Shown piece by piece: positions 421 through 62,014 of a stretch of 64,000 nucleotides of DNA. Within the stretch, counting starts at the first letter, position 1, and each line of letters begins with the position of its first letter. This DNA is from Stegostoma tigrinum (lineage: Eukaryota), in the NCBI RefSeq assembly GCF_030684315.1, contig NC_081359.1, positions 37,582,470-37,646,469 on the forward strand, written 5' to 3'. Under the pieces are notes generated by a model. It searched no databases. It was given only the letters and a program-made list of their open reading frames with translations, and had not been told where the DNA came from. The position numbers were made by a program, and so were the translations under genes.

Positions 421-2526
421 CACCCCTCCATTCTAGCCCTCATTTTAGTAAATTCAGGAAGCTGAATATATATTCATTAAACCCCATTGTTGAAAAAGGG
501 ATCAACATCCGATAGACTTAATTTCAAAGGTTCGGACTTTGGGTTTAGCTCAGCTGCTTCCCTGAAAATATGTGCCAGACCATTGCAAAAGTGGTAGTGA
601 CCAATGGCTGTGTTCTAGGCAGGAGTGGAGCCAATCAGGATGAGGCGTATGGTGAACATCTGGGCTAGGAGTGGGCAGCAGTGTTGCTGTGAAGAAAGGA
701 AGATTTTTGCCTGGTCTTCAATAGAAAATGGTTGTCCTTTCATGAACCAAAGTTTATGCAGCTGTAAACCTTGCAAAACTAACTTCCAGTTGTGGTATGT
801 GCTCTCTCCATTTTGTTTGTTTACCAATTCTGGAGCGGAGTCTTACAATTGACTGCTTATTGAATAGTCCAGGAGCAACATGTCCATTTTAACTGATACC
901 AGAGATGTTTTTGGATCAGGGATCCAAAAACATTATTGATTTTGTTTCTGACACTACAGGAAATTAGTGTCCTAAATGCTCTTCATTTTATCCTGCCAAA
1001 ACACCTCTATCAAGTTTCATACTGTTACATTTTGCAAGTCAAATTAGTCTCTTCCTCATGGATGATTAATAGAGTTGAGGCAGAACGACAGTTCACCTGA
1101 CTGAATAAACTGCGTGGGTTTCCATGAAAACACACTTCCCACATTAGGCGAGGCTCCAGATGTTTTAAGTACTTTTGCTTTGGAACTTTCACAATTTGTT
1201 TTCTTAGGATGGCCCTGTTCATGCACTGACTTCATTTATCCTCATCGCTGCTCCAACTACAGCTGATACTTTTTGGCCCCTGCTCTTCTCTTGTGTAAGT
1301 CATAAAGATAGATGGAATGCAAAGCAAACGTTCGGCAGAGAGTAGAATTTGGACTCTGTTGCAACTATTAAAACAGTTGTAATAAGGTCTGATTAAAAGA
1401 GGCTAATAATTGGCCTAATTCTCATTTTAAGATGCACTGGATACCATACAGGTGAGTGGCTATCAGATTTGATTCCCTCAAGTTGCTGCCCTCAATGCGA
1501 ATGACTTTTCTTTGATATGGAGCTGGACAATGCAGGAGGTTATCTTCTGAATTCACAGCACACCAGAAGATCAACACTGGTGTTCAATTCCACTTTACTC
1601 CAGTAGCATGAGATAAAAGCTCTTAGCAACTCCCATACAACTAGGTCTTTGTTCATTGTGTAGATTGGACTTATTTTATGAATTGATATCAGTTTAGTTC
1701 ATTGTTTTCATTTTACCAAGTTCTTATCCTTCTGTTTTAATAACAGCAATTCTCTCCTTGATTTTAAGGCTGGATATTGACCTAAAGTGAAAGAAGTAAA
1801 AATCAGTTAGGATAGTAAACTGGCTACTGATTTTTTTTTTAATATTCATTTTAAAATAAAAGTCAATATCTTATCTTTTTATGTGACATGATTTCAATTC
1901 TGATTATGCTTTCTCGCTTCCCATGGAAGATTTTCAGTTCAGAATTTAAGATAAACCGAAAGTTTATATGGAGAAGTTGGTGGATCTTGCCCAAGCCTCA
2001 TACACCACATGTGCTTAATGAGGCTGGCAGAAAGATTGCAACATGTTGGTCTGTCAGTCGCAATAGTATCATACTGCGGCATATTCAAGCTTTTGTATTC
2101 AAGAAAGGCAGCTTCCTGGATGTATTTTTGTTATTCTGAAAGAATTTCCACATAAATACTCCCGGAGGTCCAGAGATAAACGTGCAAAATGTCATGTAAT
2201 TTTTCATCCTCGTTTTACCACTGTCCAACCTGCTAACATGTGCAGGTTAAAACCCCACTCTTCAACCCCAGCAACAGAAAAGCAGATGGTAAAATATCGC
2301 AGTGCACTTGTGCTATATGCGGAAAAGCAGAGTCAGCAAAAGAGTGAGGCATTTGCAATTTAATGAGTTATTCTATTAACATATTTTGTGCAGGGGGCAC
2401 CATTTAACCTTGAGCTAGGAAATGTTAGTACTATTACTAGAAGCAAACAAAAACAAACAATCAGCAGTAATAACATCATTGAAGTGTGCCACCAATTAGA
2501 TAAACCAATACCTAATTTACAATTGT

Positions 2527-3389
2527 ATCAGTGATAATGGGAACTGCAGATGCTGGAGAATCCAAGATAATGAAATGTGAGGCTGGATGAACACAGCAGG
2601 CCCAACCTCATCTCAGGAGCACAAAAGCTGACGTTTTTGGCCTAGACCCTTCATCAGAGAGGGGGATGGGGTGAGGGTTCTGGATTAAATAGGGAGAGAG
2701 GGGGAGGCAGACCGTAGGTGGAGAGGAGAACACCTCCGCTCGGTTCGCAATAAACAACTGCACCTCCTAGTCGCAAACCATTTCCACTCCCCCTCCCATT
2801 CTTGAGATGACGTGTCCATCATGGGCCTCCTGCAGTGCCACGATGATGCCACCCAAAGGTTGCAGGAACAGCAACTCATATTCCGCTTGGGAATCCTGCG
2901 GCCCAATGGTATCAATGTGGACTTCACCAGCTTCAAAATCTCCCCTTCCCCCACCGCATCCCAAAACCAGCCCAGTTCGTCCCCTCCCCCCACTGAACCA
3001 CACAACCAGCCCAGATCTTACCCTCCACCCACTGCTTCCCAAAACCAGTCCAACCTGTCTCTGCCTCCCTAACCTGTTCTTCCTCTCACCCATCCCTTCC
3101 TCCCACCCCAAGCCGCACCTCCATCTCCTACCTACTAACCTCATCCCACCTTCTTGACCTGTCCGTCTTCCTTGGACTGACCTATCTCCTCCCTACCTCC
3201 CCACCTATACTCTCCTCTCCACCTATCTTCTTTTCTCTCCATCTTCGGTCCGCCTCCCCCTCTCTCCCTATTTATTCCAGAACCCTCACCCCATCTCCCT
3301 CTCTGATGAAGGGTCTAGGCCCGAAACATCAGCTTTTGTGCTCCTGAGATGCTGCTGGGCCTGCTGTGTTCATCCAGCCTCAATTTCAT
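2527..3389. mobile_element. Two-armed Neptune-like PLE insertion, family A (left arm minus and tailed; right arm plus and tail-less)
   Basis: 18-bp TSD tacctaatttacaattgt at 2509-2526 and 3390-3407; arm junction with AGA microhomology at 2727-2729; right arm encodes the endonuclease C-terminus (MSIMGLLQC...GINVDF). Confidence 0.92.
3301..3332 (+). ncRNA. Minimal hammerhead ribozyme motif (family A, CpG-decayed stem III)
   Basis: CTGATGA-A-GGG tctagg CCC-GAAA-CATC. Confidence 0.6.
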
Positions 3390-3529
3390 TACCTAATTTA
3401 CAATTGTCCAGTTTCAGAAGATTCTCACCTCTACATCTAATAACTGCATAACAGCTTTGTGAAGTAATTTACTAGCCAGTTCCATCTGGCGCTTCCTCCT
3501 CCAAGCAACTGAGTACCTTAAAGTTGGCA

Positions 3530-3725
3530 TGAGTGTAATTTTTACATTACTGGGCTAGTAATCTTGTCTCCTAGAGGTATTGGTTAACTAACTAGGGATC
3601 ATGAGATCAAACCCCACCATAATTATTAGAGAATATATAAATTACGGAATAGAAAACAGATACCAGAGTATTCAAGAAGCTATTGGAATGTCATGTAAAC
3701 CTATCTGGTGCCTAAGGTAGTACAT
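3530..3725 (+). mobile_element. Degraded tRNA-headed SINE fragment
   Basis: Weak match to the SINE head (actgggctagtaatc...gatcaaaccccaccat...aaacctatctggtg). Confidence 0.45.
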
Positions 3726-5399: not shown

Positions 5400-5624
5400 A
5401 TAACACAGTATGGAGCTGGAGGAACACAGCACGCCAGGCAGCATCAGAGGGGCAGGAATGTCGATGTTTCGGGTTAGGAGTCTTCTTCAGAATTGGAAGA
5501 AGGGCCCCAACCTGAAATGAAAACTTTCCTACTTCTCTGATGCTGTCTGGTCTGCTGTGTTCCTTTAGCTCCACACCGTGTCGTCTCTGATTCCAGCATC
5601 TGCAGTTCTTACCATCTCCAAGTG
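5400..5624. mobile_element. Mini two-armed PLE hairpin (MITE-like)
   Basis: Inverted pLTR ends meeting near 5492; TSD attatcatagtg at 5388-5399 and 5625-5636; left arm tail-less, right arm tailed. Confidence 0.85.
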
Positions 5625-9546: not shown

Positions 9547-9681
9547 TAGAGATAATAGGAACTGCCGATGCTGAAGAATCTGAGATAACAAGGTGTAGAG
9601 CTGGATGAGCGCAGCAGGCCAAGCAGCATCAGAGGAGCAGGAAGGCTGATGTTTCGGGTTTTGGCCTTCCTTCAGAAATCA
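9547..9681 (-). mobile_element. Solo tailed PLE family A 3' end
   Basis: gagataataggaactgccgatgctg...ccttcagaaa; flanking direct repeat agttcttc at 9539-9546 and 9682-9689. Confidence 0.85.
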
Positions 9682-11031
9682 AGTTCTTCAACTGTGTATA
9701 TGCCAAATTATTTACAGCATACTTTCAAAGCCCAACCGAGGAATTATTCTTTAAGCTAGTTACAGAAAATGAGCCAGAACAGACAGGGCATGTTAGCATG
9801 AGGGAACCTCCAGGCAACAGTAATCATGATAATAATTTTTAAGATAATTATCGAATGCATCTGACCATAAGACCATAGTACTATAATAAATAGGAGCAGG
9901 AGTAGGTCATGTGTCCCATTAAGCCTGCTCTGCCATTCAATAGGATTATGATCCAATATTCCTCATGTCCACTTTGCTGCACTTTCCCCATAAACATTGA
10001 TTCCCTCCCTGGTCAAGAATCTATCTGTCTCAGTCTTAAATATAGACAAGGACTCTACGCCCATTATTCCTTGTGGCAAGGAGTTCCAAAGACACACACC
10101 TTAAGAGAAGAAATTCCTCCTCATCTCAGAATGAGATCTAACTGATAGCTAAGTTCTGTACCCATGAGGATGTCCTCAAGCACGATCTTGGGTTCATGTC
10201 ATGCTACTCATAACCTGACCATACTGTTCTATGTAAAACTTTCCTCACTGCTCTGTTTTGACCTGATCACCTTGATAACTTGTTATTATCTCTCTACCTT
10301 AATTAGCTTGTACGGTTTTGGATTACTTGTCACTTTGGGTAGGCCCTCGTCATGTGACTCTCAGACCTACAGTGTAATTCCATGCATTTAGTTTGTCTCT
10401 GTCAAGATCCCATTTTTGACATTTCATAGTTATTAATCAGATCATAGGTCATCCCTTCACTTGCTATTCAGCTGCTGATACTTTATTCAAACTATTTGAC
10501 ACTTTTGATCACCTGCAGAGACTTGTTATTTAGCTTGTTGAAAATCCACTCCAAATGTTTGTATTTATCTTTCAACATTATTAGTTATCTGGAATTATTT
10601 TTCCATTATCTGTCTGCATGTAAATTCTGTGCAATTCCCTCCATTTCACCTGATGAAGGAGCAGCGCTCCAAAAGATTATGATTTCAAATAAACCTGTTC
10701 TACAATAACCTGGTCAACAAAATGTGAGGCTGGATGAACACAGCAGGCCAAGCAGCATCTCAGGAGCACAAAAGCTGATGTTTTGGGCCTAGACCCTTCA
10801 TCAGAGAGGGGAATGGGGTGAGGGTTCTGGAATAAATAGGGAGAGAGGGGGAGGCGGACCGAAGATGGGGCGAAAAGAAGATAGGTGGAGAGGAGAGTAT
10901 AGGTGGGGAGGTAGGGAGGGGATAGGTCAGTCCAGGGAAGACGGACAGGTCAAGGAGGTGGGATGAGGTTAGTAGGTAGAGGGGTGTGCGGCTTGGGGTG
11001 GGAGGAAGGGATGGGTGAGAGGAAGAACAGG

Positions 11032-12792
11032 TTAGGGAGGTGGAGACAGGTTGGACTGGTTTTGGGATGCAGTGGGTGGAGGGGAAGAGCTGGGCTGGTT
11101 GTGTGGTTCAGTGGGGGTAGGGGACGAACTGGACTGGTTTAGGGATGCAGTTGGGGAAGGGGAGATTTTGAAACTGGTGAAGTCCACATTGATACCATTA
11201 GGCAGCAGGGTTCCCAGGCGGAAAATGAGTTGCTGTTCCTGCAACCTTCGGGTGGCATCATTGTGGCACTGCAGGAGGCCCATGATGGACATGTCATCTA
11301 AAGAATGGGCGGGGGAGTGGAAATGGTTTGCGACTGGGAGGTGCAGTAGTTTGTTGCAAACTGAGCGGAGGTGTTCTGCAAAGCGGCCTCCAAGCCTCCG
11401 CTTGGTTTCCCCAATGTAGAGGTAGCCACACCGGGTACAGTGGATGCAGTATACCACATTGGCAGATGTGCAGGTGAACCTCTGCTTAATGTGGAATGTC
11501 ATCTTGGGGCCTGGGATAGGGGTGAGGGGGGAGGTGTGGGGACAAGTGTAGCATTTCCTGCAGTTGCAGGAGAAGGTGCCGGGTGTGGTGGGGTTGGAGG
11601 GCAGTGTGGAGCGAACAAGGGAGTCACGGAGAGAGTGGTCTCTCTGGAAAGCAGACAGGGGTGGGGATGGAAAAATGTCTTGGGTGGTGGGGTCGGATTG
11701 TAAATGGCAGAAGTGTCGGAGGATGATGCGTTGTATCCGGAGGTTGGTGGGGTGGTGTGTGAGAACGACGGGGATCCTCTTTGGGCGGTTGTGGCGGGGG
11801 GGGCGGGGCGTGAGGGACGTGTTGCGGGAAATATGGGAGACGCGGTCGAGGGCGTTCTCGATCACTTGAAGAACTTGGACATCTGGGATGTGCGGGAGTG
11901 GAATGTCTTATCTTGGGAGCAGATGCGGCGGAGGCGGAGGAATTGGGAATAGGGGATGGAATTTTTGCAGGAGGGTGGGTGGGAGGAGGTGTATTCTAGG
12001 TAGCTGTGGGAGTCGGTGGGCTTGAAATGGACATCAGTTACAAGCTGGTTGCCTGAGATGGAGACTGAGAGGTCCAGGAAGGTGAGGGATGTGCTGGAGA
12101 TGGCCCAGGTGAACTGAAGGTTGGGGTTGAAGGTGTTGGTGAAGTGGATGAACTGTTCGAGCTCCTCTGGGGAGCAAGAGGTGGCGCCGATACAGTCATC
12201 AATGTACCGGAGGAAGAGGTGGGGTTTGGGGCCTGTGTAGGTGCGGAAGAGGGACTGTTCCACGTAACCTACAAAGAGGCAGGCATAGCTGGGGCCCATG
12301 AGGGTGCCCATGGCCACCCCCTTAGTCTGTAGGAAGTGGGAGGATTCAAAAGAGAAGTTGAGGGTGAGGATGAGTTCGGCTAGGCAGATGAGGGTGTCGG
12401 TGGAGGGGGACTGGTCGGGCCTGCGGGACAGGAAGAAGCGGAGGGCCTTGAGGCCATCTGCATGCGGAATGCAGGTGTATAGGGACTGGACGTCCATGGT
12501 GAAGATGAGGTGTTGGGGGCCAGGGAATTGGAAGTCCTGGAGGAAGTGGAGGGTGTGGGTGGTGTCACGGACGTAGGTGGGGAGTTCCTGGACCAAAGGA
12601 GAGAAAATGGAGTCCAGATAGGTGGAGATGTGTTCGGTGGGGCAGGAGCAGGCTGAGACGATTGGTCGACCAGGGCAGGCAGGTTTGTGGATTTTGGGAA
12701 GGAGATAGAATCGGGCCGTGCGGGGTTGGGGAACAATGAGGTTGGAGGCTGTGGGTGGGAGGCCCCCTGAGGTGATGAGGTCATGAATGGTT
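11032..12792 (-). pseudogene. PLE RT plus GIY-YIG ORF, 5'-truncated, with a 22-nt frameshifting deletion near 11866
   Basis: TMDVQSLYTCI, QTKGVAMGT, FLRYIDD, Cys linker CNCRKCYTC, NVVYCIHCTRCGYLYIGETKRRL; deletion seen against 61586-61607. Confidence 0.93.
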
Positions 12793-13237
12793 CACCTGCA
12801 CATCTGCCAATGTGGTATACTGCATCCACTGTACCCGGTGTGGCTACCTCTACATTGGGGAAACCAAGCGGAGGCTTGGAGACTGCTTTGCAGAACACTT
12901 CCACGCAGTTCGCAACAAACTACTGCACCTCCCAGTCGCAAACCATTTCCACTCCCCCTCCCATTCTTTAGATGACATGTCCATTATGGGCCTCCTGCAG
13001 TGCCACAATGATGCCACCCGAAGGTTGCAGGAACAGCAACTCATATTCTGCCTGGGAACCCTACAGCCTAGTGGTATCAATGTGGACTTCACCAGTTTCA
13101 AAATCTCCCCTTCCCCAACTGCATCCCTAAACCAGCCCAGTTCGTCCCCTCCCCCCACTGCACCACACAACCAGCCCAGCTCTTCCCCTCCACCCACTGC
13201 ATCCCAAAACCAGTCCAACCTGTCTCCGCCTCCCTAA
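12789..13237 (+). pseudogene. PLE GIY-YIG endonuclease fragment (right arm)
   Basis: VVYCIHCTRCGYLYIGETKRRLGDCFAEH...GINVDF. Confidence 0.92.
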
Positions 13238-13462
13238 CCTGTTCTTCCTCTCACCCATCCCTTCCTCCCACCCCAAGCCGCACCCCCATCTACCTACTAA
13301 CCTCATCCCACCTCCTTGACCTGTCCGTCTTCCCTGGACTGACCTATCCCCTCCCTACCTCCCCACCTATACTCTCCTCTCCACCTATCTTCTTTTCTCT
13401 CCATCTTCGGTCCGCCTCCCCCTCTCTCCCTATTTATTCCAGAACCCTCACCCCATCCCCCT

Positions 13463-13494
13463 CTCTGATGAAGGGTCTAGGCCCGAAACGTCAG
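13463..13494 (+). ncRNA. Minimal hammerhead ribozyme motif, intact core (family A)
   Basis: CTGATGA (13465-13471)-A-GGGTCTAGGCCC-GAAACGTC; palindromic ACGT stem III; predicted cleavage after C13492. Confidence 0.75.
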
Positions 13495-13997
13495 CTTTTG
13501 TGCTCCTGAGATGCTGCTTGGCCTGCTGTGTTCATCCAGCCTCACATTTTGTTGTCTTGGATTCTCCAGCATCTGCAGTTCGCATTATCTCTGCTACAAT
13601 AACCTGGTGTCGTGTGACTTTTAACTTTGTCTACCCCAGACCAACACCAGCATCTCCACATCATAGTTTGTATTCTGAGACTATGTCCTCTGTTCCTAGA
13701 TTCTCCCATGTGGAGATACATCACCCCAGCATCTACTTCTCATTCTTATAACTCCAATGAGTAGAGTCCTGACCTGTTTAGCCTTTATTCAAGACAATCC
13801 CTCCATACTGATGACCATCCCAGTAAATCTTCACTGAACTATTTCCAAAGAAATAATATCTTGCCTTAAATAAGGAAACCAAAACTGCTCACAGTACTCC
13901 AGATATGGTCTCTCCAGCACCTTCTACATTTGCAGTAAGACGTCCCTCTTCATATTCTTCGCCTCCCTTGAAGTAAGGACAAACATTCCATTAGCCT

Positions 13998-14216
13998 GAG
14001 CTAACAAGATGTAGAACTGGATGAACACAACCGGCCAAGCAGCATCAGAGGAGCAGGCAGGCTGACATTTTTTTTCTGAAATTTCTTCTGAAGAAGGGTC
14101 TAAGACTGAAACAACAGCCTTCCTGCTCCTCTGATGCTGCTTGGCTTGCTGTGTTCATCCAGCTCTACACCTTGCTATCTCAGATTCTCCAGTATCTATA
14201 GTTCCTACTATCTCTG
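13998..14216. mobile_element. Mini two-armed PLE hairpin
   Basis: Inverted pLTR ends; degenerate TSD attccattagcct (13985-13997) / attccataagcat (14217-14229); left arm tail-less, right arm tailed. Confidence 0.85.
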
Positions 14217-14519
14217 ATTCCATAAGCATTCCTGATTACCTGCGAGCTTTCTGGGTTCCATATGCAGGTCCACATGCCAAATCCTTTTGTGTTATAGCTT
14301 TGTGCAACTGTTCTGCATTTAAATAAGGCTTATGATAAAGATCAAATCAATATATTTGGGGAAATACAGCTTAAATTAAACTTAAACTAACTGAAGCATA
14401 AATATAACATATGCCTTATTAAATACAATATTAATTCAGGAGATTTTGTCTGCCCAGAGATTGGTTAGCCTGGAAACTTGCTTCTGCAGTTGAGGAGATG
14501 ATGTGTTTCAGGTGAACAG

Positions 14520-15840
14520 CAAACATACATTTCGGTTGAGTTAGAAATATACACAAAAGGGAAAGTTTTAGGAGGTTGATTGCAAAGTAGCAGGAGGCCA
14601 TACAGCCCAACAGTCTGCACGCTCTCTGCATTGAACAATCCAATTACGCTCTTCTCCAGCCATCTCACCTAGTGCTGCATAATATTTTCTTTTACATATG
14701 ACCACCTAGTTTCCATTTTAATGCTTCTGTTGAACCTGTCTCCACAACGTTCTCACACAGTGCATTCCATTCACTGACCACGTGCCTCATGAAAAGGTTT
14801 CTCATTATTTTTTGCTTCTCTTTGTGTTTGCTTCTCTTACAAACTCGCTCAAATCCTTGCCTGCTTATTCCCAGTCATTAGTGGGAACAATTCCTCTAAG
14901 CCCATTCTGTCCTAACTTCCTCAATCTTGGACCATTCACAAGGATACTTTCCTCAACCTCTTTATTCCCTCCACATCTTCTGTAAAGAATGACATTTAAA
15001 AGAATTGATAAAACTCTCGCTGAGACTGAAATTGTACCTCATGTAGGTTCAACACTACCTTCTTGTTCTTATGCTCCAGACCCCTAATAAAAAAAATACC
15101 CTCAGCAACTGTATGCTTAATCAACTGTTCTCTGAACCTGCACAACCATATTGAATGACTCGTTTATAAAAATACCAGACCCTTCTGCTTCTGCACTCCC
15201 TGACAAATTGATGTTTATTTTATTTCATTTCTCTCGAACAAGTAAATCACTTTGCATTTTTCTGCATTCAGTTTAGTTTGTCACTTATCCATCCAATCCA
15301 CCAAATTGTTTATGCTTTTTGGAATTACTATAATACCTTAGCTACAGCTTACAATGTTTTCAAATTTTGTATTATCAACAGATTTTGAAATTGTGCCCTA
15401 TGCCCTGTGGTCTGGGAGAAAAAAAAGCATTGTTCCCAATATTGACTCCTGAGGAAGTTGACAAGAATCCTTCTCCAGCGCTAGGAACATACAAAAAGCA
15501 TTACACATGTTTCTTGTCACTCAACAAACTTTGCATCCAAGTTGCTACTGTTCATTTTATTTCATGAATTCTACCTTTGCTCATGATGCTGTTGTGTAGC
15601 ATTGCATTAAATCCTTCACAGTCACTACATCAACATCATTGTCCTTCTCCATTGCTTTCCAAAACTAATAAGTAATAATACTTTCCAATAAGAAATACAT
15701 GCTAGCTTTCCTTAAGTAACCCACATTTGACAATGTGCTACTACCTTTTTTCTAAATTGTTATTTCCAGACGTTTCAAACCTTCTTAGTTAAACTGACTG
15801 GTTTGGAGCTGCTTAATATGTTCTTACCCTTTTTACAAAC
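14520..15840 (-). mobile_element. Heavily decayed CR1-like LINE fragments
   Basis: gcaggaggccatacagccc 3'UTR motif; tcactttgcatttttctgcattcagttt and gttaaactgactgg (RPVSL-like on minus) remnants. Confidence 0.5.
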
Positions 15841-20495: not shown

Positions 20496-20661
20496 CAATT
20501 AAGCAGTAATCATTTTGAACTTCAGGTGTTAGAGAAGGTCATTGAGGATGAACAGCAATAGGTGAATAACATTTGCTAGAATCTGCAGTAGGTGCAGTGC
20601 TTTACTCTATCCTCCAAGCTTACAGGGAATTCAGAACTGGTAGGCAGTTACAAAAGTCGTG

Positions 20662-20778
20662 GAGAAGGTCTTGACCTGAAATGTCAGCTTTTCTGCTCCT
20701 CTGATGCTGCCTGGCCTGCATCCGGCTCTACACCTTGTTATCTCAGATTCTACGGCATCAGCAGTTCCTACTATTTCT
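20662..20778 (+). mobile_element. Solo tailed PLE family A 3' end
   Basis: gaaggtcttgacctgaaatgtcagc...gcagttcctactatttct. Confidence 0.8.
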
Positions 20779-20805
20779 GTCAAGTCTGTTATTCCATCTG
20801 CTGAG

Positions 20806-38400: not shown

Positions 38401-38807
38401 AAGCTTTTGTTTCTTTGGTTGCTGAGAATGCTGTAGTGTCCTTCCCTCAGGATCTGTCTAATTTGATGACTGTGTCTTGTAGCATTCTCGACTGAATAAG
38501 ATCTTTAAAGCAAATGCAACACTGCACCCAGCTTTGCCAGATGCTCTACGCATCGTGAATGGTTTTTGGTGGTTTGATTTTGGTTTGTTTGAAGAGGTTG
38601 TCTCTCAATTCCCATGTGGCATCAACGTGGATGCCAGTGTCCAAAGAAACAAGCTCAGCCTCTTCTCTTGGAGGTTCATTGGCTACGGTATTGGAGTGGA
38701 AGAATGTAGTGGCATCATGTGTATCTTTGTTTTATTTAGAGTATCACATCAACAAAGCGACATTACAATAATTTTGACAACTGGTCAGTTGTAGCTAACA
38801 AAGAAAT

Positions 38808-38924
38808 CAGAGATAATGGGAACTGCAGATGCTGGAGATTCCAAGATAATAAAATGTGAGGCTGGATGAACACAGCAGGCCAAGCAGCATCTCAGGAGCA
38901 CAAAAGCTGACGTTTCGGGCCTAG
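38808..38924 (-). mobile_element. Solo tailed PLE family A 3' end (young)
   Basis: Near-identical to 60403-60520; 10-bp TSD acaaagaaat at 38798-38807 and 38925-38934. Confidence 0.92.
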
Positions 38925-39129
38925 ACAAAGAAATGACTGGTTTCACATTTGTAGGATTGGTTGCCTCACTGTGTGGGGCACCATGGAGCTTTGAGTGGCA
39001 AGATCAATCAGTATATCTTACTGATTTCTTTCTTCCCATGCAAGGTACATTGTTAGTTCTGTGCAGGGCATTGTTAAATCAAAGTGTCTCACCCTTAAAG
39101 TTTTCCCCTGGGATTGTTGAGTAAAAACT

Positions 39130-42783: not shown

Positions 42784-42923
42784 GAGATAGTAGGAACTGC
42801 TGATGCTGGAGTCTGAGATAACAAGGAAATTTCTGAAGAAAGGTCCAGACCCAAAACGTCAGGTTTCCTGCTCCTATGATGCTGCCTGGCCTGCTGTATT
42901 TATCCAGCTCTACACCTTGTTAT
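42784..42923. mobile_element. Mini two-armed PLE insertion (43-nt tailed left arm, tail-less right arm)
   Basis: TSD aacattctaggaa (42771-42783) / aacattctaagaa (42924-42936). Confidence 0.88.
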
Positions 42924-49520: not shown

Positions 49521-49529
49521 ATGTTACAA

Positions 49530-50310: not shown

Positions 50311-50329
50311 AAGGCTAAGGGCCCAATGC

Positions 50330-51210: not shown

Positions 51211-53098
51211 AGTATCCAGGTTGCTTTCACAAGACCCAGAACACAAAAGGTAAGGAGAAAAAAAAAATAACCGCAGAATTAGCCATGTGTGTCAGCATGG
51301 TGCATCTGTCGATGAACAAGCAACTTGTGAAACGGGGAACCACATCTTCAACAATGTCAGCCACTCTCCAGAAAAGGGTGTGCAGAAAGCATTCCAGCTA
51401 CCTGCTAATGAGTGAAAGTCAGTGCAGGAGACATCATCACAAAACTAGAGAAGCTGGCACCTAGATCTGCTTGCCTTCTCACTTCTACGCATATGCACAT
51501 AAGATGGTTCAGTGCCTGAGGAGTCATGACTGAGTTGAAAATTGTGCAATCATCAGTGGCCATCCCAAATTCTAACCTAATGATACAGGAAACATCATTA
51601 ATGAAACAGCTTCAAGTCTCATTTGCTCTAGAACTGTGTCATAACATCGCTGAACAGGTTCATGCAGAAAATACCTACACTGAGGAATTCCTGCAGAAAT
51701 GTACTGAGAGTGAGATGATTACCATCCACAACCAGGATATGGATCAAGAAAGATACACTCTGCTTGTGAGAAGACAAAGAAGACAGGAGTAACTTGTCAC
51801 ATTGAATGAGAGAAATTGCTCAAAACTCATCAATTTCTAACCTTGGTGACTGGGGACATTTAGATGAAACTGTTTTCTTAAACAATATATGTAAATTGAA
51901 CAACAATATAGAAAGCTAAAGCAGTGAATCTCATAAAATAAACATTGAAATTTATGCAAGGATCCTTCCAAATATTTTCCTACCTGTTTTGCCTTTAAAA
52001 CAGGGTCTTTGTACTGGGCATCAGTCAGGTCCAGAGGAAGGGGCAATGGCTTCTTACAGTCACAGAGCCGTGGCAGTGCACAACACGGAAACAGAGCCTT
52101 CATCCATGCTGACCAAATGGCCTAAATTAATCAATTCCCATTTGCCAGCGTTTGGCCCAAATCCCTCTAAATCCTTACTACTTACATACCCCATCAAAAG
52201 CCTTTTAAATGTTGTAATTTTACCAGCCTCCATCATCTCCTCTTACAGCTCATTCCATACAAGCACCACTCTACATGAAATTTTTTTTTTCAGTCGTTTG
52301 TGGGATGTAGGCATTGCTGACTGGACAGCATTGCTTGCCCATCCCAAGTTGCCCTTGAGAACGTGGTGGTGAACTGCCTTCTTGAACCACTGCAGTCCTC
52401 CTGCTGTGGGTTGATCTACAATGCCCTTAGGGAGGGAATTCCAGGATTTTGACCAAGTGACAGTGAAGGAACGATGATGTATTTCGAAGTCAGGATAGTG
52501 AGTGACTTGGAGGAGAACTTGGAGGTAGTGGTGTTCCCATATATCTGCTGCCGCTAACCTTCTAGATGGAAGTGGCTGTGTGTTTGGAAGGTGCTGACTG
52601 AGGATCTTTGGTGAATTTCTGCTGTGCATCTTGTAGATAGTACACACTGCTGCTACTGAGCGTTGGTGGTGGAGGGAGTGAATGCCTGTGGATGTAATAT
52701 AATCAAGTGGGCTGCTTTGTCCGGGATAGTGTCAAGCTTCTTGAGTGTTGTTGGGGCCGCACTCATCCAGGTAAGTGGGGAGTATTCTACCACACTCCTG
52801 ACTTGTGTCTTGTAGATGGTGGTCAGGCTTTGAGGCATCAGGAGGTGAGTTACTCGCTGCAGTATTCCCAGCTTCTGGCCTGCCCTTGTGGCCACTGTGT
52901 TTATGTGGTGAGTACAGTTAAGTTTCCCATCAATAGTAACCCCCGGGATGTTAACAGTGTGGGACTCAGTGATGGTAACACCATTGAATATCAAGGGACG
53001 GTGGTTAGATTGTCACTTATTGGTGATGGTCATAGTCTGGCATTTGTATGACGCGAATGTCACTTGCCACTTGTCAGCCTCAAACTGAATATTATGCA

Positions 53099-53223
53099 GA
53101 GATAATGGGAACTGCAGATGCTAGAGTATCTAAGATAACAGAGTGTGAAGCTAGCTGAACACAGCAGGCCAAACTGCATCTCAGGAGCACAAAAGCTGAC
53201 GTTTCGGGCCTAGACCCTTCATC
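53099..53223 (-). mobile_element. Solo tailed PLE family A 3' end, coinciding with a deletion in the host LINE
   Basis: gagataatgggaactgcagatgc...ctgacgtttcgggcctagacccttcatc; LINE sequence present after 41200 is absent here. Confidence 0.9.
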
Positions 53224-54049
53224 CACGACCGTCTTCCTACGTGACAGGTATGACTCCAATTACCGGAGTGTTTGCCCCCGATACCCATTGGTTCCAGTTT
53301 TGCTAGGGCTCCTTGATGCCACACTTGTTTAAATGCAGCCTTGATATCAAAGGTTATCACTCTCCCCTCACCTTTAGAATTCAGCTTTTTTGTCCATGTT
53401 TGAACCAAGGCTGTAATGAAATGAGGAACTGAGTGGCCTCCGCGGAACCCAGACTGGGCGTCACAGAGCAGGTTATTTATGAGCAGATGCTGCTTGATAG
53501 CACTGTTGGTGACACATTCCATCACTTTACTGATGATCAAAAGTAGACTGATGGGGCAGTCATTAGCTGGGATGGATTTGTCCTGCTTTTTGTGTACAGG
53601 ATATACTTGGGCAATTTGCCACATTGTCAGGTAGATATCAGTGTCCCCTCCTCCCACCCCAAGCCCCACACCCATCTCCTACCTACTAACCTCATCCTGC
53701 CCTCTTGACCTCCTTGTCCTCCCTGAATTGACCTATTTCCTCTACATCCCAACCTGCACTCACCTCTACTTGCTCCATCCCTGCCTCTGACCTGTCTGTC
53801 TCCCCTCCACCTATCTTCTCCTCTACCTATCTTCTATCTGCCTCACCCTGTCTCCTTATTTATTCCCCTCCCCCATTTCTGAAGAAAGGTCTAGGCCCAA
53901 AATGTCAGCCTTCCTATTCCTCACCTTGTTATTTCAGATTGTCCAGCATCTGCAGTTCCTACTATCTCAAAAACAATTCTAACCCCACTGCGAAGCCTCT
54001 TCTAAGGATTCCTACTCAGAAGAAGCTACCCTCCTCCCTCCAAAACAAC

Positions 54050-57000
54050 TTCAGTGGTTGTCTCTTCCACTACAACTTTCTTGTGATCTCTTCAGCCTTG
54101 AAACTGCTCAATCTCATCCTGAAGCAAACCGAGGGACTGCAGCCACATCACTTTTTTTTAGTACCTGCCTGCAAAACCAGATCATCCCCAATGAACTACA
54201 GTAGTCCACATTCAGGACTTCCTAACTTTGCCCCAACAGTGACAATATCTGTGTTCAGAACACTGAGACCCTTCACAAGCGTTTCTCCCTGCGACCCCTG
54301 AGACACTTACTCGCAGGAATGCGCTGGCATCTCCAGGCACTACAATCAAGCCTACCCCAGCTCAGAGCCTCCCTCTCCCAGACCTGCAAAAGACCTGTCC
54401 TGTTTTTTATTCTTCTTCAGATCCATAACCTGAACTCACATTTCTACACAGCTTTATTTGAAACTAAAAACCATAAGTACAGTAAACTTACTGGTACCTA
54501 CCACCCAAAATGGGCCTACTCCACCTCCCAAATCACCAACCCTACTCAGAACCCTCCCCACAATGTACCCGCCACCATTGGCCATGTGGCCACTATTGGA
54601 GCACCCACAGCTAATGTCACATCCTCCGCTGCCAGGCACACCACTTCTGAGACAGCGAACGCCATCGACACTGCTGCTGATGACATTTCCAAGGCTAACA
54701 CCATAGACACTGAGGACGCACCTACCATCACCCCTGCTGCCACCACCTACCCCGCTCTGCTGACCACTGACACTGCTCCACCCACCACCGACCCCAACGC
54801 AACTCCGCCCACCGCCAACGCTGATACAACTCTGCCCAGCGCCGACACTGATGCAATGCCGCCCACCACCGCCGATGCAACTCCGCCCATAGCTGATGCT
54901 GCATGGCCCACCACGAATGCTGACATCACTCCGTCCACCGCGTCTACAGCCAGCAGCTCCAGAGGAGACATCAGCACCCAGCCCTGCCGAGTCTTCGCCA
55001 TCCTCCCAGATCTCGCCCTTGCAGAGAATGAACAGTCAGTCCCCAGTAAAGGGCTAATCTTTGACCCCCTCCACCCACACATCAACGAATACCGGTCACA
55101 TTTGGACATTGAGCAATTTTTCCGCCGCCTCTGCCTCCGTGTTTACTTCTTTAACAGTGAACCTAACCCTCCCTCTACTGACCCCTTCTCCCACCTCCAA
55201 CACAGCCCCTCCTCCTGGACGCCACCCCAAGGCCTTCTACCCTCCCTCGATCTCTTCATCTCCAATTGTCGTTGAGATATCAGTTACCACAACTTTTCCA
55301 CTCCTCTCACCCAATCCATCCTCCCCCCCACAGAATATGCAGCCCTCCACTTCCTCTGCTCCAATTCCAATCTCACCATAAAACCCGCGGACAAGGGAGG
55401 CGCAATTGTAGTATGGCACACTGATCTCTGCATCGCCGAGGCCAGGCATCAACTCTCCAACACCACCTCCTACCGCCCCCTTAATCACCCGATCACTGAA
55501 CCATCATCTCCCAAACCATCCACAATCTCATCACTTCAGGTGACCTCCCACCCACAACCTCCAACCTCATCGTTCCCCAACCCCACACCGACCGCTTCTG
55601 TCTCCTTCCCAAAATCCACAAACCTGACTGCCCTGGTCGACCCATAGTCTCCGCCTGCGCCTGCCCCACCGAACTTGTCTCCACCCATCTCAACTCCTTT
55701 TTTCTCCCACTTTGGCCAGGAACTCCCTACCTAAGTCCGTGATACCACCCACGCCGTCCAGAACTTCCAATTCCCTGATCCCCAACACCTCATCTTTACC
55801 ATGGACATTCCCCATACAGGTGGCCTAAAGGCCCTCTGCTTCTTCCTGTCCCGCAGGCCCAACCTGTCCCCCTCCACTGACATCCTCATCCGCTTAGCTG
55901 AACTCATCCTCACCCTCAACAACTTTTCTTTCAATTCCTCCCACTTCCTACAGACAAACGGGATGGCCATGGGTACCCACATGGGCCCAAGTTAAGCCTG
56001 CATCTTCATAGGTTACATGGAACAATCCCTCTTCTGTATCTACACTGGCCCCAAACCCCACCTCTTCCTCCGATACATTGATGACTGTATCAGCGCTGCC
56101 CCGTGCACCCTTGAGGAACTTGAACAGTTCATCCACTTCACCAGCACCTTCAACCTCAACCTTAAGTTCACCTGGACCATCTCTAATACCTCTCTCCTTC
56201 CTGGACCTCTCTGTCTCCAGCCTCTTTGGCAGCCACCTAGAAACCGATATCTATTTCAAGCCCACCAACTCCCACAGCTACCTAAAATACACCTCCTCCC
56301 ACCTACTTTCCTGCAAAAATGCCATCACCTATTCGCACTTCCTTCGGCTCCGCCACATCTGCTCCCAGAATGAGGCATTCCACTCACGTACACCTCAGAT
56401 GTCCTTATTTTTCAAGGACCGCAACTTCCCCCCATCAGTGGTCGAAAACGCCCTCTACCGTGTCTCCTGCATTTCCCACAACTCATATCTCACACCCCCT
56501 CCCCACAATAAAAACCAAAACAGAATCCCCCTCGTCCTCACGTACCAGCCCACCAACCTCTGGATCTAACGCATAATCTTCCGACACTTCCGCCATCTGC
56601 AATCTGACCCCATCACCAAAGACATTTTTTCTCTCCCCACCCTTATCTGCCATCCAGAAGTACCACTCTCTGGAACTCCCTGGTCCGCTCCACACTTCCA
56701 TCCATCCCCAGCACTTTTCTCTGCAACCTCAGGAAGTGCTGCACCTGCCCCTATACCTCCACCCTCACCCCCATCCCAGGCCCCAAGAAGACTTTCCACA
56801 TCAAGCAGATGATCACCTGCACATCTGCTAATGTGGTATACTGCATCTGCTGTTCCCGTTGTGACCTCCTCCACGCTGGAGAAACCAAGCAGAAGCTTGG
56901 GAACCGCTTTGCAGAACACCTCCGCTCAGTTTGCACTAAACAACTGCACCTCCCAGTCGCGAACCATTTTAACTCCACCTCGCATTCCTCAGACAACATG

Positions 57001-57180
57001 GCCATCCAGGGTCCCCTGCAGTGTCACAACAATGCTACCCGAAGTTTGCAGGAACAGCATCTCATATTCCACTTGGGAACCCTGCAACCCAATAGTATCA
57101 ATGTGGACTTCACAAGCTCCAAAATCTCCTCTCCCCCTACCACATCCCAAAACCAGCCCAGCTTGTCCCCGCCTCCCTAA
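54050..57180 (+). pseudogene. PLE polyprotein (N-terminal domain, low-complexity insert, RT, Cys linker, GIY-YIG), disrupted
   Basis: TCLQNQIIP; PSKGLIFDP; IKPADKGGAIVVW; LLPKIHKPDCPGRPIVS; QTNGMAMGT; RYIDD; NVVYCICCSRCDLLHAGETKQKL. Confidence 0.9.
54720..54950 (+). repeat. In-frame degenerate minisatellite encoding Thr/Ala/Pro/Asp repeats
   Basis: TTDTAPP TTDPNATPP TANADTTLPS ADTDAMPP TTADATPP IADAAWP TTNADITPS. Confidence 0.8.
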
Positions 57181-60100
57181 CCTGTCCTTCCTCCCACCTG
57201 TCCCCTCCTCCCACCTCAAACCCCACCCTCATTCCCTACCTACTAACCTCATCCCACCCCCTTGACCTGTCCGTCCTCCCTGGGCAGAGCTATGTCCTCC
57301 CTACCTCCCCACCTACACTCACCTTTACTGGCTCCATCCCCACCTCTTTGAACTGTCCATCTCCTCTCCACCTATCTTCTCCTCTATCCATCTTCAATCC
57401 GCCTCCCCCTCTCTCCCTATTTATTTCAGAAACCCCTTCCCGTCCCCCATTTCTGAAGAAGGGTCTAGGCCTAAAACGTCAGCTATCCTGCTCCTCTGAT
57501 ACTGTTTGGCCTGCTGCATTCATCCAGCTCTACAACTAGTTATCTCCTTGTTGTAACTGTGCTGGAACAGCTTGGCTAGGGCAGTGGCAAGTTCTGGAGC
57601 ACAAGTCTTCAGTACTATTGCTGGACTGTTGTCAGGGCCGGTAGCTTTTGCAGTATCCATTGCCTCCAACTGTTTCTTGATATCACTTGGAGTGAATCAA
57701 ATTGGTGGAAGACTGGTATCTGTCATGCTGGGGATCATTTGAGTCCAAGATGAATCATGTACTCAGTACTTCTGGCTGAACATTGCTGCAAATGTTTCAG
57801 TCTAATCTTTTGCACTGATGTTCTGGGCTCTTCCATCATTGAGGATAGGAGTATTTGTGGAGCCTCCTCCTCCAGTGAATAGTCTAATTGTCCACCACCA
57901 TTCACAACTGGATGTGGCAGGACTGCAGAGGTTAAATCTGATCTGTTGGTTATGGGATCACTTCACTCTGTCTATCACTTACTGTTTTCACTGTTTGGCA
58001 TGGAAGTGGTCTTGTTTGGTGGCTTCACCACGTTGATACCTGAAGATGAGATATGCCTGGTGCTACTCCTGGCATGCCCTCCTGCAATCTTCATTGAACC
58101 AAGGTTGATCCCCTGGCTTCATTATAATGGTTGAGTGGGGGGATATGCTTGGCCATGAGGTAACAGATTGTGGTGGAATATATTTCGGCCACTGTTGATG
58201 GCCCACAGCACCTCATGGATGCGCAGTCGTGAGTTTCTAGATCTGTGTGAAGACTGTCCCATTTGGCATGCTGATTGTGCCACCCAACACAATGGAGGTT
58301 GTTCTCAATGTGAAGGTGGGACTTCATCTCTACAAGGACTGTGCAATGGTCACGCTTACTGATTCTGTTATGGGCAAATGTAACTGCAGCTGGCAGATTG
58401 GAAGGGCTGAGGTCAAGTGTGCTTTTCCCTCTTGGTTCCCTCACCAACTGCTGCAGAACCAGTCTCACAGCTGTGTCCTTTAGGACCTGACCAACTCGAT
58501 CGGTAGAGCTGTTGCTGTGCCACTGTTGGTGGTGAACATTGAAAGCCCCCACCCAGGGTACATTTTGTGCCCTTGCCATCCTCAGTGCTTCCTCCAAATA
58601 TTGCTCAGCATTGAGTACTGATTCATCAGCTGAAGGAAGACAGTATGTGATAATCAGCAGGAGGTTACCTTGCCCATGTTTAACTTGAAGCCATGAGACT
58701 TTATGGGGTCCAGACCTCACATTCAGGACTCCTAGACCAACATCCTTGACTATATACCACTGCGCCACCCCCCTCTGCTGGGTCTGTCTTGCTGGTGAGA
58801 CAGGACATATCCAGGGATGATAATTGTGGTGTCAGGCACATTGTTTGTAAGGTATCATTCTGTGAGTATGAATATGTCAGGTTGTTGCTTGAATAGTCTG
58901 TGAGACAGCTCTCCCAACTTTGGCGTGAATCCCCAGATGTTAGTGAGGAGGACTTTGCATGGTTGACAGGGCTGTTTCTGCCATTGTCTTTTCCAGTACC
59001 TAGATCGATGTTAGGTGACCCATCTAGTTTCATTTCTTTGAGTCTTTGCAGCAATTGGTGCATCTGAGTGGCTTGTTAGGCCATTTCAGAGGGTAGCTGA
59101 GAGTCTACCAAATTGCAGCGGGTCTGGAGTCTCATGTAGGCCAGACCAGGTGAGTGGTAGCAGATTTCCTTCACTGAAAGACATTAGTGAACCAGATGGG
59201 TTTTTCTGATCATTGGCAATTATTTCATGCTGATCAGTAGATTCTTAATTCCAGACATTTTTTTGAATTCCAATTCTGCCTTCTGCCATGGTGGTATTTG
59301 AACCTGGGGCACCAGAACATCAACTGGGTCTCTAGATTAATAGTCTGGTGCTAAAAGTACTAGGCCATCACCTAACCTCAGGACCTCATTTTAAATTTTT
59401 CACCTGCCCTCTAGTTTTGGACTTCACTACTCCGTGAAAAAGACCTCGACTATTAACCATATCCATTGTCAAGATTTTATAAATGTCTATTAGGTCACCC
59501 TCAGCCTTCGATCCTCTGGGGAAAATAGCCCTGGCCTATTCATCCTCTCCCTCTCGCCCAACCCGTCCAACACTGGAAACATCCTAGTAAATCTTTTCTG
59601 AAACACTTTCAAGTTCCACGACACCCTCCCTATAGCAGAGAGACCAGAATTGAATGCAGTATTCCAAGAGTGACCTGACTAATGCCCTGTACAGCCACAA
59701 CATGACCTCCAATCTCCTATATTAAATACACTGACCAATAATGGTAAGCAAACCAAATGCCATCTTCACCATCCTGACTACCTGTGACTCCACCTTCAAG
59801 GAACCCTTCCTCAGCTGTTATGGCTTCCTGATTCATTAGTATCCCCTAAGTTATCCTTTTTAGCCCTTTGTCTGGCCATTGAGATATGCCTAGTGCTGCT
59901 CCTGGCATGCCCTCTTACATTCTTCATTGATCCAATGTTGATTATAATGGTTGTGTGGGGTATATGCTGGGCCATGAGGTTACAGATTGTGGTGGAATAC
60001 AGTTCTGCCACTGTTGATGGCCCACAGCACCTCATGGATGCGCAGTCTTGAGTTTCTCGATCGGTGTGAATCTCAGCTCATTTATTCCCTTCACACAGGA

Positions 60101-60500
60101 CATCAGCTTTCAAGTGGGCTTTTACCCTGATGGACTTCATACTGTTGCTGTGGCTTCTTGGTGAGTACATCTCAAATCATTTGGTGCATTGGGATGGTCA
60201 GAAGTGATTTCATCTCAGTGGAGGTAAAACCTTTCCAGACCCAAAAAGCCAAATACTTGGTATATTTGAAAATGGACTTAGCGTATATCGAGTAAAGCAT
60301 GGGAAATTCCTGGGTGAGTGACCATATAGGTTGGTGCTAGTAGCTCCCCCTACTTTACAAGAACCCTTTCATTTTCCCAAACTTGTTCCTGGCATTGAAT
60401 TCGAGATAATGGGAACTGCAGATGCTGGAGAATTCCAAGATGATAAAATGTGAGGCTGGATGAACACAGCAGGCCAAGCAGCATCTCAGGAGCACAAAAG

Positions 60501-60532
60501 CTGACGTTTCGGGCCTAGACCCTTCATCAGAG
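60501..60532 (-). ncRNA. Minimal hammerhead ribozyme motif, intact core (family A)
   Basis: Reverse complement CTCTGATGAAGGGTCTAGGCCCGAAACGTCAG. Confidence 0.75.
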
Positions 60533-60754
60533 AGGGGGATGGGGAGAGGGAACTGGAATAAATAGGGAGAGAGGGGGAGGCGGACCGAAGATGGAGAGTA
60601 AAGAAGGTAGGTGGAGAGAGTATAGGTGGGGAGGTAGGGAGGGGATAGGTCAGTCCAGGGAAGACGGACAGGTCAAGGAGGTGGGATGAGGTTAGTAGGT
60701 AGATGGGGGTGCGGCTTGGGGTGGGAGGAAGAGATGGGTGAAAGGAAGAACCGG

Positions 60755-61723
60755 TTAGGGAGGCAGAGACAGGTTGGACTGGTTTTGGGATGCAGTGGGT
60801 GGGGGGGAAGAGCTGGGCTGGTTGTGTGGTGCAGTGGGGGGAGGGGACGAACTGGGCTGGTTTAGGGATGCAGTAGGGGAAGGGGAGATTTTGAAACTGG
60901 TGAAGTCCACATTGATACCATATGGCTGCAGGGTTCCCAGGCGGAATATGAGTTGCTGTTCCTGCAACCTTCGGGTGGCATCATTGTGGCAGTGCAGAAG
61001 GCCCATGATGGACATGTCATCTAGAGAATGGGAGGGGGAGTGGAAATGGTTTGCGACTGGGAGGTGCAGTTGTTTGTTGCGAACTGAGCGGAGGTGTTCT
61101 GCAAAGCGGTCCCCAAACCTCCGCTTGGTTTCTCCAATGTAGAGGAAGCCGCACCGGGTACAGTGGATGCAGTAAACCACATTGGCAGATGTGCAGGTGA
61201 ACCTCTGCTTAATGTGGAATGTCATCTTGGGGCCTGGGATAGGGGTGAGGGAAGAGGTGTGGGGACAAGTGTAGCATTCCCTGCGGTTGCAGGGGAAGGT
61301 GCCGGGTGTGGTGGGGTTGGAGGGCAGTGTGGAGCGAACAAGGGAGTCACGGAGAGAGTGGTCTCTCCAGAAAGCAGACAGGGGTGGGGATGGAAAAATG
61401 TCTTGGGTGGTGGGGTCGGATTGTAAATGACGGAAGTGTCGGAGGATGATGCGTTGTATCCGGAGGTTGGTAGGGTGGTGTGTGAGAACGAGGGGGATCC
61501 TCTTAGGGTGGTTGTGGCGGGGGCGGGGTGTGAGCGATGTGTTGCGGGAAATACGGGAGACGCGGTCAAGGGCGTTCTCGATCACTGTGGGGGGAAAGTT
61601 GCGGTCCTTAAAGAACTTGGACATCTGGGATGTGCGGGAGTGGAATGTCTTATCGTGGGAGCAGATGCGGCGGAGGCGGAGGAATTGGGAATAGGGGATG
61701 GAATTTTTGCAGGGGGGTGGGTG
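60755..61723 (-). pseudogene. Uninterrupted but 5'-truncated PLE ORF (RT thumb, Cys linker, GIY-YIG)
   Basis: SIPYSQFLRLRRICS...GTFPCNRRECYTC...NVVYCIHCTRCGFLYIGETKRRFGDRFAEH; no stops over about 320 codons. Confidence 0.93.
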
Positions 61724-62014
61724 AAGCCGCACCCCCATCTACCTACTAACCTCATCCCACCTCCTTGACCTGTCCGTCTTCCCTGGACTGACCTGTCCCC
61801 TCCCTACCTCCCCAACTATACTCTCTCCACCTATCTTCTTTACTCTCCATCTTCGGTCCGCCTCCCTTCTCTCCCTATTTATTCCAGTTCCCTCTCCCCG
61901 TCCCCCTCTCTGATGAAGTGTCTAGGCCCGAAACGTCAGCTTTTGTGCTCCTGAGGTGCTGCTTGGCCTGCTGTGTTCATCCAGCCTCACATTTTATCAT
62001 CCTGGCATTGAATT

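Follow-up and report, generated by a model that had tools for sequence, protein, structure and literature searches.

The stretch analysed here, called the window, is 64,000 nucleotides of Stegostoma tigrinum DNA (NC_081359.1, positions 37,582,470 to 37,646,469), lying on the contig handled as C6 of a 3.2-Gb genome, and it carries repeated insertions of a single Penelope-like element (PLE) family, many of which consist of two inverted arms of the element enclosed by a single Target Site Duplication (TSD). In all 55 of the TSD-bounded two-armed insertions found in a 1.36-Mb sample of this genome, exactly one arm carries the 3' tail of the element (p=6e-17 against an expectation of 50%). The explanation preferred here, to which a probability of roughly 0.6 is given, is that one RNA is primed from both nicks of the target, each nick using its own one of two neighbouring fixed sites about 37 nt apart. 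A sequence-only reading of the window had proposed that two nicks prime at two fixed template sites, the tail site being used first; the fixed sites most likely hold, while the order is not supported.

Element positions are numbered from 0, the C that closes the first TTATC-like motif, with U denoting the tail-less end, near 0, and T the tailed end, at about +33 to +41. The sample was drawn from eight 200-kb genome blocks and includes the window; one block (C3, 200 kb of satellite), the duplicated half of another (C10) and arms with an alignment score below 44 were left out, and the C12 and C20 blocks were centred on matches of a tailed query, so that each contains one selected copy. This gave 210 loci, of which 74 are two-armed, 128 single-armed and 8 complex, these last being set aside. 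Two-armed insertions were taken as TSD-bounded at a TSD score of at least 6, and solo copies were graded at scores of at least 7 and at least 8. A second set, separate from this sample, comprises the first 40 of 1306 genome-wide matches at position -63, and the pairing counts rest on the sample and these 40 loci rather than on a genome-wide tally.

The six two-armed insertions listed in the sequence-only reading are all present in the window, one of them beginning at 13996 and not 13998, with their 3' ends facing outward and one T and one U arm each, in long TSDs that range from 11 to 18 bp instead of the 12 to 18 bp first given. Neither frequent T/T or U/U pairs nor a continuous distribution of endpoints, both of which that reading had held to be fatal to its rule, was found: among the 74 two-armed loci there are 64 T/U pairs, no T/T, three U/U and seven with one or both ends off site, and the end positions are bimodal. 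Of the 55 TSD-bounded pairs, 28 have their tailed arm to the left; in two of the 55 the untailed arm ends further upstream, at -25 and -48, and in the separate set 22 of 23 script-called pairs are T/U. For one of the U/U pairs, a segmental duplicate contains a paralogue with the tail, which indicates that the tail of this pair was lost later. The TSDs are not a product of chance, given that a score of at least 6 is reached by 55 of the 74 two-armed loci and by 0 of 150 mismatched flank pairs, and they measure 13-16 bp in 39 of the 55.

The empty-site check proposed in the sequence-only reading gave a base-exact result, in which the insertion at 2527-3389 is absent as one unit from a related species. 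The contigs of this species (runs X6 and X8) jump from window position 2510 to 3392, skipping 881 bases that equal the 863-base insert plus one 18-base TSD, so that both arms arrived in one event. The solo copy at 38808 is also missing from these contigs, with a join from 38767 to 38925 that is not base-exact, and the contigs break at 5400, 9547, 42784 and 44657, where they are uninformative.

The two arms of an insertion also tend to stop together on the template. Their reach is concordant, both being long in 14 pairs and both short in 50, with only 3 mixed among 67 (p=2e-11), and both arms begin inside -66 in 9 of the 50 short pairs (p=4e-4), a shared 5' limit that points to one RNA primed twice. 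Of 695 subfamily-diagnostic letters, 641 are the same in both partners (92%, against a mean of 59% and a maximum of 68% after shuffling), and 0 of 66 pairs are subfamily chimeras. These results bear on an alternative in which two RNAs from the same locus, held together (for example by a dimeric hammerhead) in an asymmetric particle, would each prime one nick. This arrangement, unlikely but the best placed of the competing explanations, requires no strand displacement and resembles the dual priming postulated for L1 in the available text of PMC2837659. The minimal hammerheads of PLEs have also been proposed to act as dimers (PMC4209133), which would cut both RNAs together and give a shared limit at -63, and 4 of 21 partners of arms that begin at -63 extend to between -92 and -95. 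However, a symmetric pair of RNAs would leave the 0 of 74 T/T pairs unexplained, the 3 mixed pairs of 67 compare with about 23 expected from the margins under independent choice, and no arm pair mixes subfamilies.

The two nicks resemble each other closely. An A-rich flank motif just beyond the TSD (positions -8 to -6 and -3 to -2) scores 131 versus 130 of 240 at the two nicks, against a background of 29%, and the microhomology between primer and template slightly exceeds chance at either end (1.09 nt at T and 1.47 nt at U, for a null of 0.7; T versus U, p=0.16). The equal motif and the similar microhomology are easier to reconcile with nicks of equal standing than with a specific nick followed by a looser one. 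U and T together form a degenerate direct repeat, with p=0.005-0.05 in three of the five copies tested and 0.16-0.19 in the other two, and single-sequence folding of two read-through copies gave no common structure at U and T.

A strictly ordered priming, in which the first nick would always use the tail site and a later second nick the upstream site, was favoured in the sequence-only reading on the grounds that all five solo copies of the window are tailed. They are indeed tailed, with a clear TSD only at 9547 and 38808, but the rule fails over 1.36 Mb and comes down to an effect of five copies, given that solos divide into 10 T and 10 U at a TSD score of at least 8, and the 128 single-armed loci into 53 T, 58 U and 17 other. 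The ordered model can draw on the solos graded at a score of at least 7 (16 T to 10 U), on the extra letters found at several T ends and on the slightly higher microhomology at U, both ends being over the null. On the other hand, the same target motif occurs at both nicks, the difference in microhomology has a p of only 0.16, and a cDNA (complementary DNA) started first at T would mask U on that RNA, all of which makes the model improbable. Solo class, target motif, microhomology and the lengths of the arms were each used as a test of the order and none decides it, and an order is unsupported. The TSDs of solos are slightly shorter than those of two-armed insertions (median 12 versus 14, p=0.048). 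Two seeming U solos (C6 block 86080-86168, in L003, and L190) hide an inverted tailed arm of 15-18 nt, so that part of the solo class consists of two-armed insertions in which one arm is very small.

The lengths of the arms weigh on a further explanation, a fold-back in which the T-primed cDNA would fold, be copied back to the sense strand and be trimmed at U by the endonuclease. The T/U pairing and the identity of the arms would follow automatically from this process, some junctions are palindromic, and self-priming and 'EN-mediated resolution' are proposed in the available portions of PMC3846280 and PMC8557442. It demands, however, that the U arm never exceed the T arm, and the U arm is the longer in 29 of 55 insertions (for example, 2079 versus 768 nt at 10715-13593, and 96 versus 7 at 42784), which excludes a simple fold-back of the T-primed cDNA. 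Given also that U solos with TSDs exist and that U ends share microhomology with the template, the fold-back is very improbable and largely refuted by the arm lengths, surviving only if asymmetric central deletions are common. Finally, separate insertions at one site or later recombination are extremely unlikely as the origin of the arms, since one TSD encloses both, subfamily concordance is 92% and the joint absence from the related species has already refuted this origin at 2527-3389, even if the U/U pair with the tailed paralogue indicates that later deletions do occur.

Under the single-RNA explanation, a dimeric reverse transcriptase (RT) and endonuclease would nick both strands of the target about 14 bp apart, and the 3' end of each nick would prime on the same RNA, one at T and the other at U. 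Both RTs would then run toward the 5' end of the RNA, with the cDNA of the RT in front being displaced by the RT behind it, and end-joining would bring together the 3' ends of the two cDNAs, often through short homology, a solo copy being the product when either cDNA is lost. The joining of two cDNAs, also put forward in the sequence-only reading, agrees with the 55 junctions, which have an overlap of at least 1 nt in 22 cases, are blunt in 6 and carry extra or unaligned letters in 27. The reach of the arms would be set by the template, which may be an RNA that starts near -96, a minority of RNA cut by a hammerhead ribozyme at -63, or a read-through or 3' pseudo-LTR (pLTR) copy in the case of the long arms. 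A wider proposition, tentative and at slightly less than even odds, is that the two-armed insertion may be the default product of PLEs, with a symmetric endonuclease dimer and two RTs docked on a duplicated RNA motif that copy simultaneously 37 nt apart, and that the genome may record three template states (started at -96, cleaved at -63 and read-through).

The cleaved state is suggested by a minimal hammerhead motif at -91 to -62, with a predicted cut between -64 and -63. In 132 copies, its core positions are kept in 90-131, with N7 varying between U and A, and the pairs of stem II are kept in 111-127 of about 131. It has the conserved core, the extra base before stem II, the G10.1-C11.1 pair and the palindromic 15.2-16.2 of the minimal type I, while helix I has only 2 bp instead of 4-5 (U-A in 124 of 132, then C-G in 68, U-G in 39 and U-A in 16, with a third pair in 1 of 118), as in the variant described for the PLE hammerhead of D. 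virilis (PMC4209133). An Rfam scan of window positions 10000-15000 returned no hammerhead, only sub-threshold hairpin matches, and the motif was identified by its anatomy. The sequence of stem II (window 13473-13484 and homologues) is almost perfectly palindromic (in many copies GGGTCTAGGCCC, GGGTCTAGACCC), so that two RNAs could pair through it in addition to stem III.

The 5' ends were counted genome-wide for one subfamily, a copy being scored as ending at a position when none of the four letters upstream of it matches the element, and they peak on the predicted bond. The raw counts, with the base-composition-corrected values in brackets, are 151 (386) at -70, 468 (1660) at -67, 166 (528) at -65, 369 (1173) at -64, 1306 (3722) at -63, 407 (1294) at -62, 478 (1520) at -61 and 781 (2483) at -53. 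The peak at -63 is one base wide, on the GUC/A bond, with 166-478 within two bases on either side; about 245 raw matches at -64 are the expected spill from -63, and the listings at -67 and -53 are visibly rich in letters of the partner arm. Among the first 40 of these -63 matches, same-strand continuation, owing to indels or internal deletions, occurs in 5 and is absent from 35; the 35 comprise 23 loci scored as two-armed and 12 that lack an inverted partner. The partner arm begins inside -65 in 17 of these 23, against a background of 28% (p=6e-6). Two of the 23 were then dropped (L178, an intact copy with an insertion, and L185, with a spurious partner), and the 21 junctions kept have extra letters in 13 cases, are blunt in 1, and have microhomology of 1 nt in 2 and of at least 2 nt in 5.

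This peak probably reflects cleavage by the ribozyme in vivo, judging from the position and sharpness of the genomic ends. It might otherwise arise from preferred joining at the AGCT palindrome (-63 to -60) or at other short inverted matches, or from stalling of the RT at the folded motif, an unlikely origin to which the palindrome itself, the 5 of 21 junctions with microhomology of at least 2 nt and the visible inflation of other positions by partner microhomology lend some weight. Against joining stand the single-base width on the predicted bond, the 13 of 21 junctions with extra letters, the 12 of 40 loci without an inverted partner and the confinement of partners inside -65, together with a tandem array (L177, G000:C1:4383190-4384417) of 100-nt units that each run from -63 to the T site, as if cDNA had run off a cleaved RNA and re-primed at T. 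Stalling at stem II predicts ends near -71, yet the lowest count is found there (151 at -70). At another locus (L201), the second unit begins at -63. Given that only 38 of 270 arm starts fall in -65 to -33, the hammerhead-cleaved templates are a minority.

The short arms meet a 5' ceiling. Their 5' ends accumulate just upstream of the hammerhead and then cease near -96, with 132 of the 270 in -98 to -66 and 2 in -131 to -99. A TATA-like box at -125 and an initiator-like sequence near -96 make this ceiling a likely RNA start, set by a promoter within the pLTR, and a copy on C1 that starts near -96 and reads through the tail into the open reading frame (ORF) supports this start. Promoters in the pLTRs of PLEs are described in the available portions of PMC2377424 and PMC6765202. 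A splice acceptor was rejected as the cause of the ceiling, since AG does not occur ahead of -96 and the CAG at about -118 falls in the empty zone. The sequences L167-L172 and the C1 block at 87605-88160 (in L029) are partial tandems of about 150-330 nt, which run from the pLTR end to the ORF start and back into the pLTR; one such short tandem starts near -96 within a 15-bp TSD, and they were likened to retrozyme-like non-autonomous multimers.

Several points weigh against this account of one RNA primed twice. We infer both the single RNA, as opposed to two co-processed RNAs, and the protein dimer, and strand displacement is required if the same RNA segment is to be copied twice. Of 272 rare variants, only 32 are common to both partners (12%, for a null of 2.5%), a low proportion which implies that most rare letters arose after insertion, and gene conversion between the arms may underlie the sharing of letters. 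No clear pile-up of T arms is seen at U, with 6 of their 5' ends at -14 to +3, and among the short pairs (n=50) T is shorter in 28 and U in 18, with a detection bias. The U-T repeat is significant in only 3 of 5 copies, and there are 10 pairs among the 74 that are not T/U (3 U/U and 7 off site), of which 8 have no TSD. The -96 start and the -63 cut are read from DNA footprints, the 5'-end patterns cover one subfamily and their control positions include unsubtracted microhomology and indel matches, and the 4 of 21 partners that pass -63 have already been mentioned. In the available text on PAc, the Poseidon of Anolis carolinensis studied in vitro by Frangieh et al. 2024 (PMC11167929), the same start sites were used on both strands and no strict T/U pairing was seen.

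PAc also shares features with the present family, as far as the accessible portions of that paper go: reverse transcription starts internally at two adjacent sites that bound the tail, downstream of the hammerhead, both strands of an AT-rich target are nicked and extended, a dimer is predicted, and mostly uncleaved RNA serves as template, which matches the cleaved minority found here. Unlike the present family, PAc belongs to another clade, without the CX2-5CxxC linker, and those portions report no strand difference in start site, do not address the pairing of sites within one insertion and report no RNA-seq reads ending at the ribozyme cut. Twin or dual priming in L1 (Meyer et al. 2010, PMC2837659, in the text available) likewise joins two cDNAs primed at two nicks into an inverted insert within one TSD of about 14 bp; in twin priming the second primer anneals at a variable internal site and the arms do not overlap, whereas here the sites are fixed 37 nt apart, the arms overlap and the same flank motif occurs at both nicks. 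An L1-type product was rejected as an identity for these insertions, which only work similarly, given that the second site is fixed near 0 and the arms overlap in the template. The hammerhead resembles the minimal PLE type of PMC4209133 in its CUGANGA and GAAA core, the unpaired base before stem II, G10.1-C11.1, the palindromic 15.2-16.2 and the lack of loop 3; that paper reports low activity in vitro and has no evidence in vivo, whereas the genomic 5' ends here peak on the predicted scissile bond.

In the canonical unit of endonuclease-bearing (EN+) PLEs, as described in the available portions of Craig et al. 2021 (PMC8557442) and Arkhipova et al. 2013 (PMC3846280), an inverted copy, a tail often at one end only and TSDs of 8-10 bp are already known. 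The tail is optional there, as shown by examples, whereas here the rule is strict in 55 of 55, the TSDs are longer (mode 13-16), two-armed inserts exceed TSD-bounded solos (55 versus 30), and the arm lengths oppose the self-priming explanation of those papers. The sequence-only reading had suggested that the asymmetry may be under-described. The one-sided tail is already printed in qualitative form in what could be seen of PMC8557442 (Fig. 2 legend) and PMC3846280, while the strict count is unpublished as far as searched. The inverted arm, the one-sided tail and the two RT start sites are already published. In the literature searched, neither a count of T/U pairing nor an analysis of shared limits was found, nor any genomic accumulation of ends at the hammerhead cut of a PLE; the accessible text of bioRxiv 10.64898/2026.07.22.740005, PMC3681739, PMC6431247 and PMC9977147 does not address arm pairing, and the shared 5' limit of the arms, the promoter-like ceiling at -96 and the single-base peak at -63, a likely footprint of in vivo cleavage, were not found in that literature.

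The element and its architecture are ordinary, and the value of the family lies in the constraints it places on mechanism. With 74 two-armed loci per 1.36 Mb, or an order of 10^5 in the 3.2-Gb genome if the sample is typical, its abundance turns the genome into a record of PLE reaction products. The integration mode of PLEs, their inverted units with one-sided tails and in-cell cleavage by minimal hammerheads are stated as open in the available portions of PMC8557442, PMC11167929 and PMC4209133, and two of the open questions on PLEs become directly testable through the template limit common to both arms and the footprint at the ribozyme cut. The predictions are that a target nicked on both strands carries a single T start and a single U start, that its two arms derive from the same RNA, and that RNA ends lie at -96 and -63. 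If correct, this would be the first in vivo evidence of cleavage by a minimal PLE hammerhead, with a 3' product that is reverse-transcribed and re-primed into tandems.

The family itself, with two main subfamilies, supplies all of the repeats of the sequence-only reading, whose assignment of its family A to PLEs stands, on the basis of the RT, linker, GIY-YIG endonuclease, pLTRs and tail. The longer copies encode an RT fragment (a weak Pfam RVT_1 match, 27.3 bits for a curated cut-off of 29.6), a CX4CxxC linker and an endonuclease of the GIY-YIG type that has the CCHH residues. As in EN+ PLEs, the RT precedes VVYCIHCTRCG.LYIG and the conserved R, H, E and N of the endonuclease, the Pfam scan returning 0 endonuclease matches and this part being assigned by eye. 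The CCHH zinc finger, an EN+ hallmark with two Cys between GIY and YIG (PMC8557442, in part), is represented in three copies by CxxC between GIY and YIG and His residues downstream. The linker reads CNRRECYTC, CNCRKCYTC or CNLRKCCTC, all of the CX2-5CxxC form that the same text places in Neptune and Nematis and finds absent from Penelope/Poseidon, so that the copies in the window are, by this RT-endonuclease linker rather than by a tree, classed as a Neptune-type PLE. Other EN+ traits are present, namely pLTRs derived from partial tandems, an inverted truncated copy and a tail of 30-40 bp, and the ORF of every copy in the window is broken or truncated.

Table 1. PLE insertions and internal features in the window (element positions in brackets or with sign).
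Feature	Window position	Strand	Details
Two-armed insert	2527-3389		T arm 2527-2725 (-) ends +39; U arm 2727-3389 (+) ends -4
TSD of 2527-3389	2509-2526 / 3390-3407		18 bp
Two-armed insert, older subfamily	5400-5624		U arm (-) -1; T arm (+) +41; TSD 12 bp
Tailed solo	9547-9681	-	About -95 to +35; TSD 8 bp
Two-armed insert, long/long	10715-13593		U arm 10715-12791 (-) -2; T arm 12789-13593 (+) +37; TSD 15 bp; junction overlap 3 nt
RT fragment	11862-12791	-	Weak RVT_1, under curated cut-off
RT thumb, CX4CxxC linker, GIY-YIG endonuclease with CCHH	11032-11907	-	Motif definitions from PMC8557442 (available portions)
TATA-like TATTTAT (-125 to -119)	13431-13437	+	About 30 nt upstream of 5' ceiling; putative promoter
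5' ceiling of short copies (-97 to -92)	13459-13464	+	Initiator-like sequence, likely transcription start
Minimal hammerhead motif	13465-13494	+	CUGAUGA, extra A, stem II, GAAACGUC
Predicted hammerhead cut (-64/-63)	Between 13492 and 13493	+	
U priming region	13523-13556	+	CCAGC...TTRTC; position 0 = 13556
37-nt tail	13557-13593	+	Degenerate repeat of U region; ends at T site
Two-armed insert, short	13996-14216		U arm (-) +4; T arm (+) +37; TSD 11 bp, 1 mismatch
Tailed solo	20660-20782	+	No TSD found
Tailed solo	38808-38924	-	TSD 10 bp
Two-armed insert	42784-42923		T arm 42 nt (-) +35; U arm 95 nt (+) -1; TSD 13 bp, 1 mismatch
Tailed solo	44656-44783	-	Weak 7-bp TSD
Tailed solo	53098-53223	-	No TSD found
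Partial-tandem, decayed near-full-length copy	53642-57546	+	3' end U +2; no clear TSD
Two-armed insert, long/long	60402-61999		T arm 60402-61723 (-) +36; U arm 61724-61999 (+) -2; TSD 15 bp; blunt junction
39-bp repeat	2941-3052, 11052-11163, 13106-13217, 60775-60886		

The direct-repeat copy at 53642-57546 is tail-less with no clear TSD, as the sequence-only reading had described it, and its upstream pLTR continues across the tail and on into the ORF. The 39-bp tandem repeat (2.9 copies) follows the endonuclease in the younger subfamily, where it encodes a Ser/Pro-rich tail, and is absent from this copy, while a Thr/Ala/Asp-rich low-complexity stretch with a 27-bp repeat (window 54226-55275, plus strand) lies in the N-terminal part of the PLE ORF.

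Outside the family, the C10 block (L061-L080, G000:C10:30000001-30200000) is segmentally duplicated in tandem, the units measuring about 95 kb and being 96-99% identical, and in it the PLE paralogues differ, one being without its tail. The C3 block (L041-L060, G000:C3:50000001-50200000) is 200 kb of satellite-like tandem, in which neither a PLE arm nor a match to the window was found. Remnants of long interspersed nuclear elements (LINEs), with RVT_1 and Exo_endo_phos_2 matches, lie in the window at 52243-52731 (-), 53181-53678 (-), 57547-57650 and 58091-58831 (-). The PLE copy at 53642-57546 has a LINE RT remnant as its host site and splits it in two, and the tailed solo at 53098 adjoins that same remnant.

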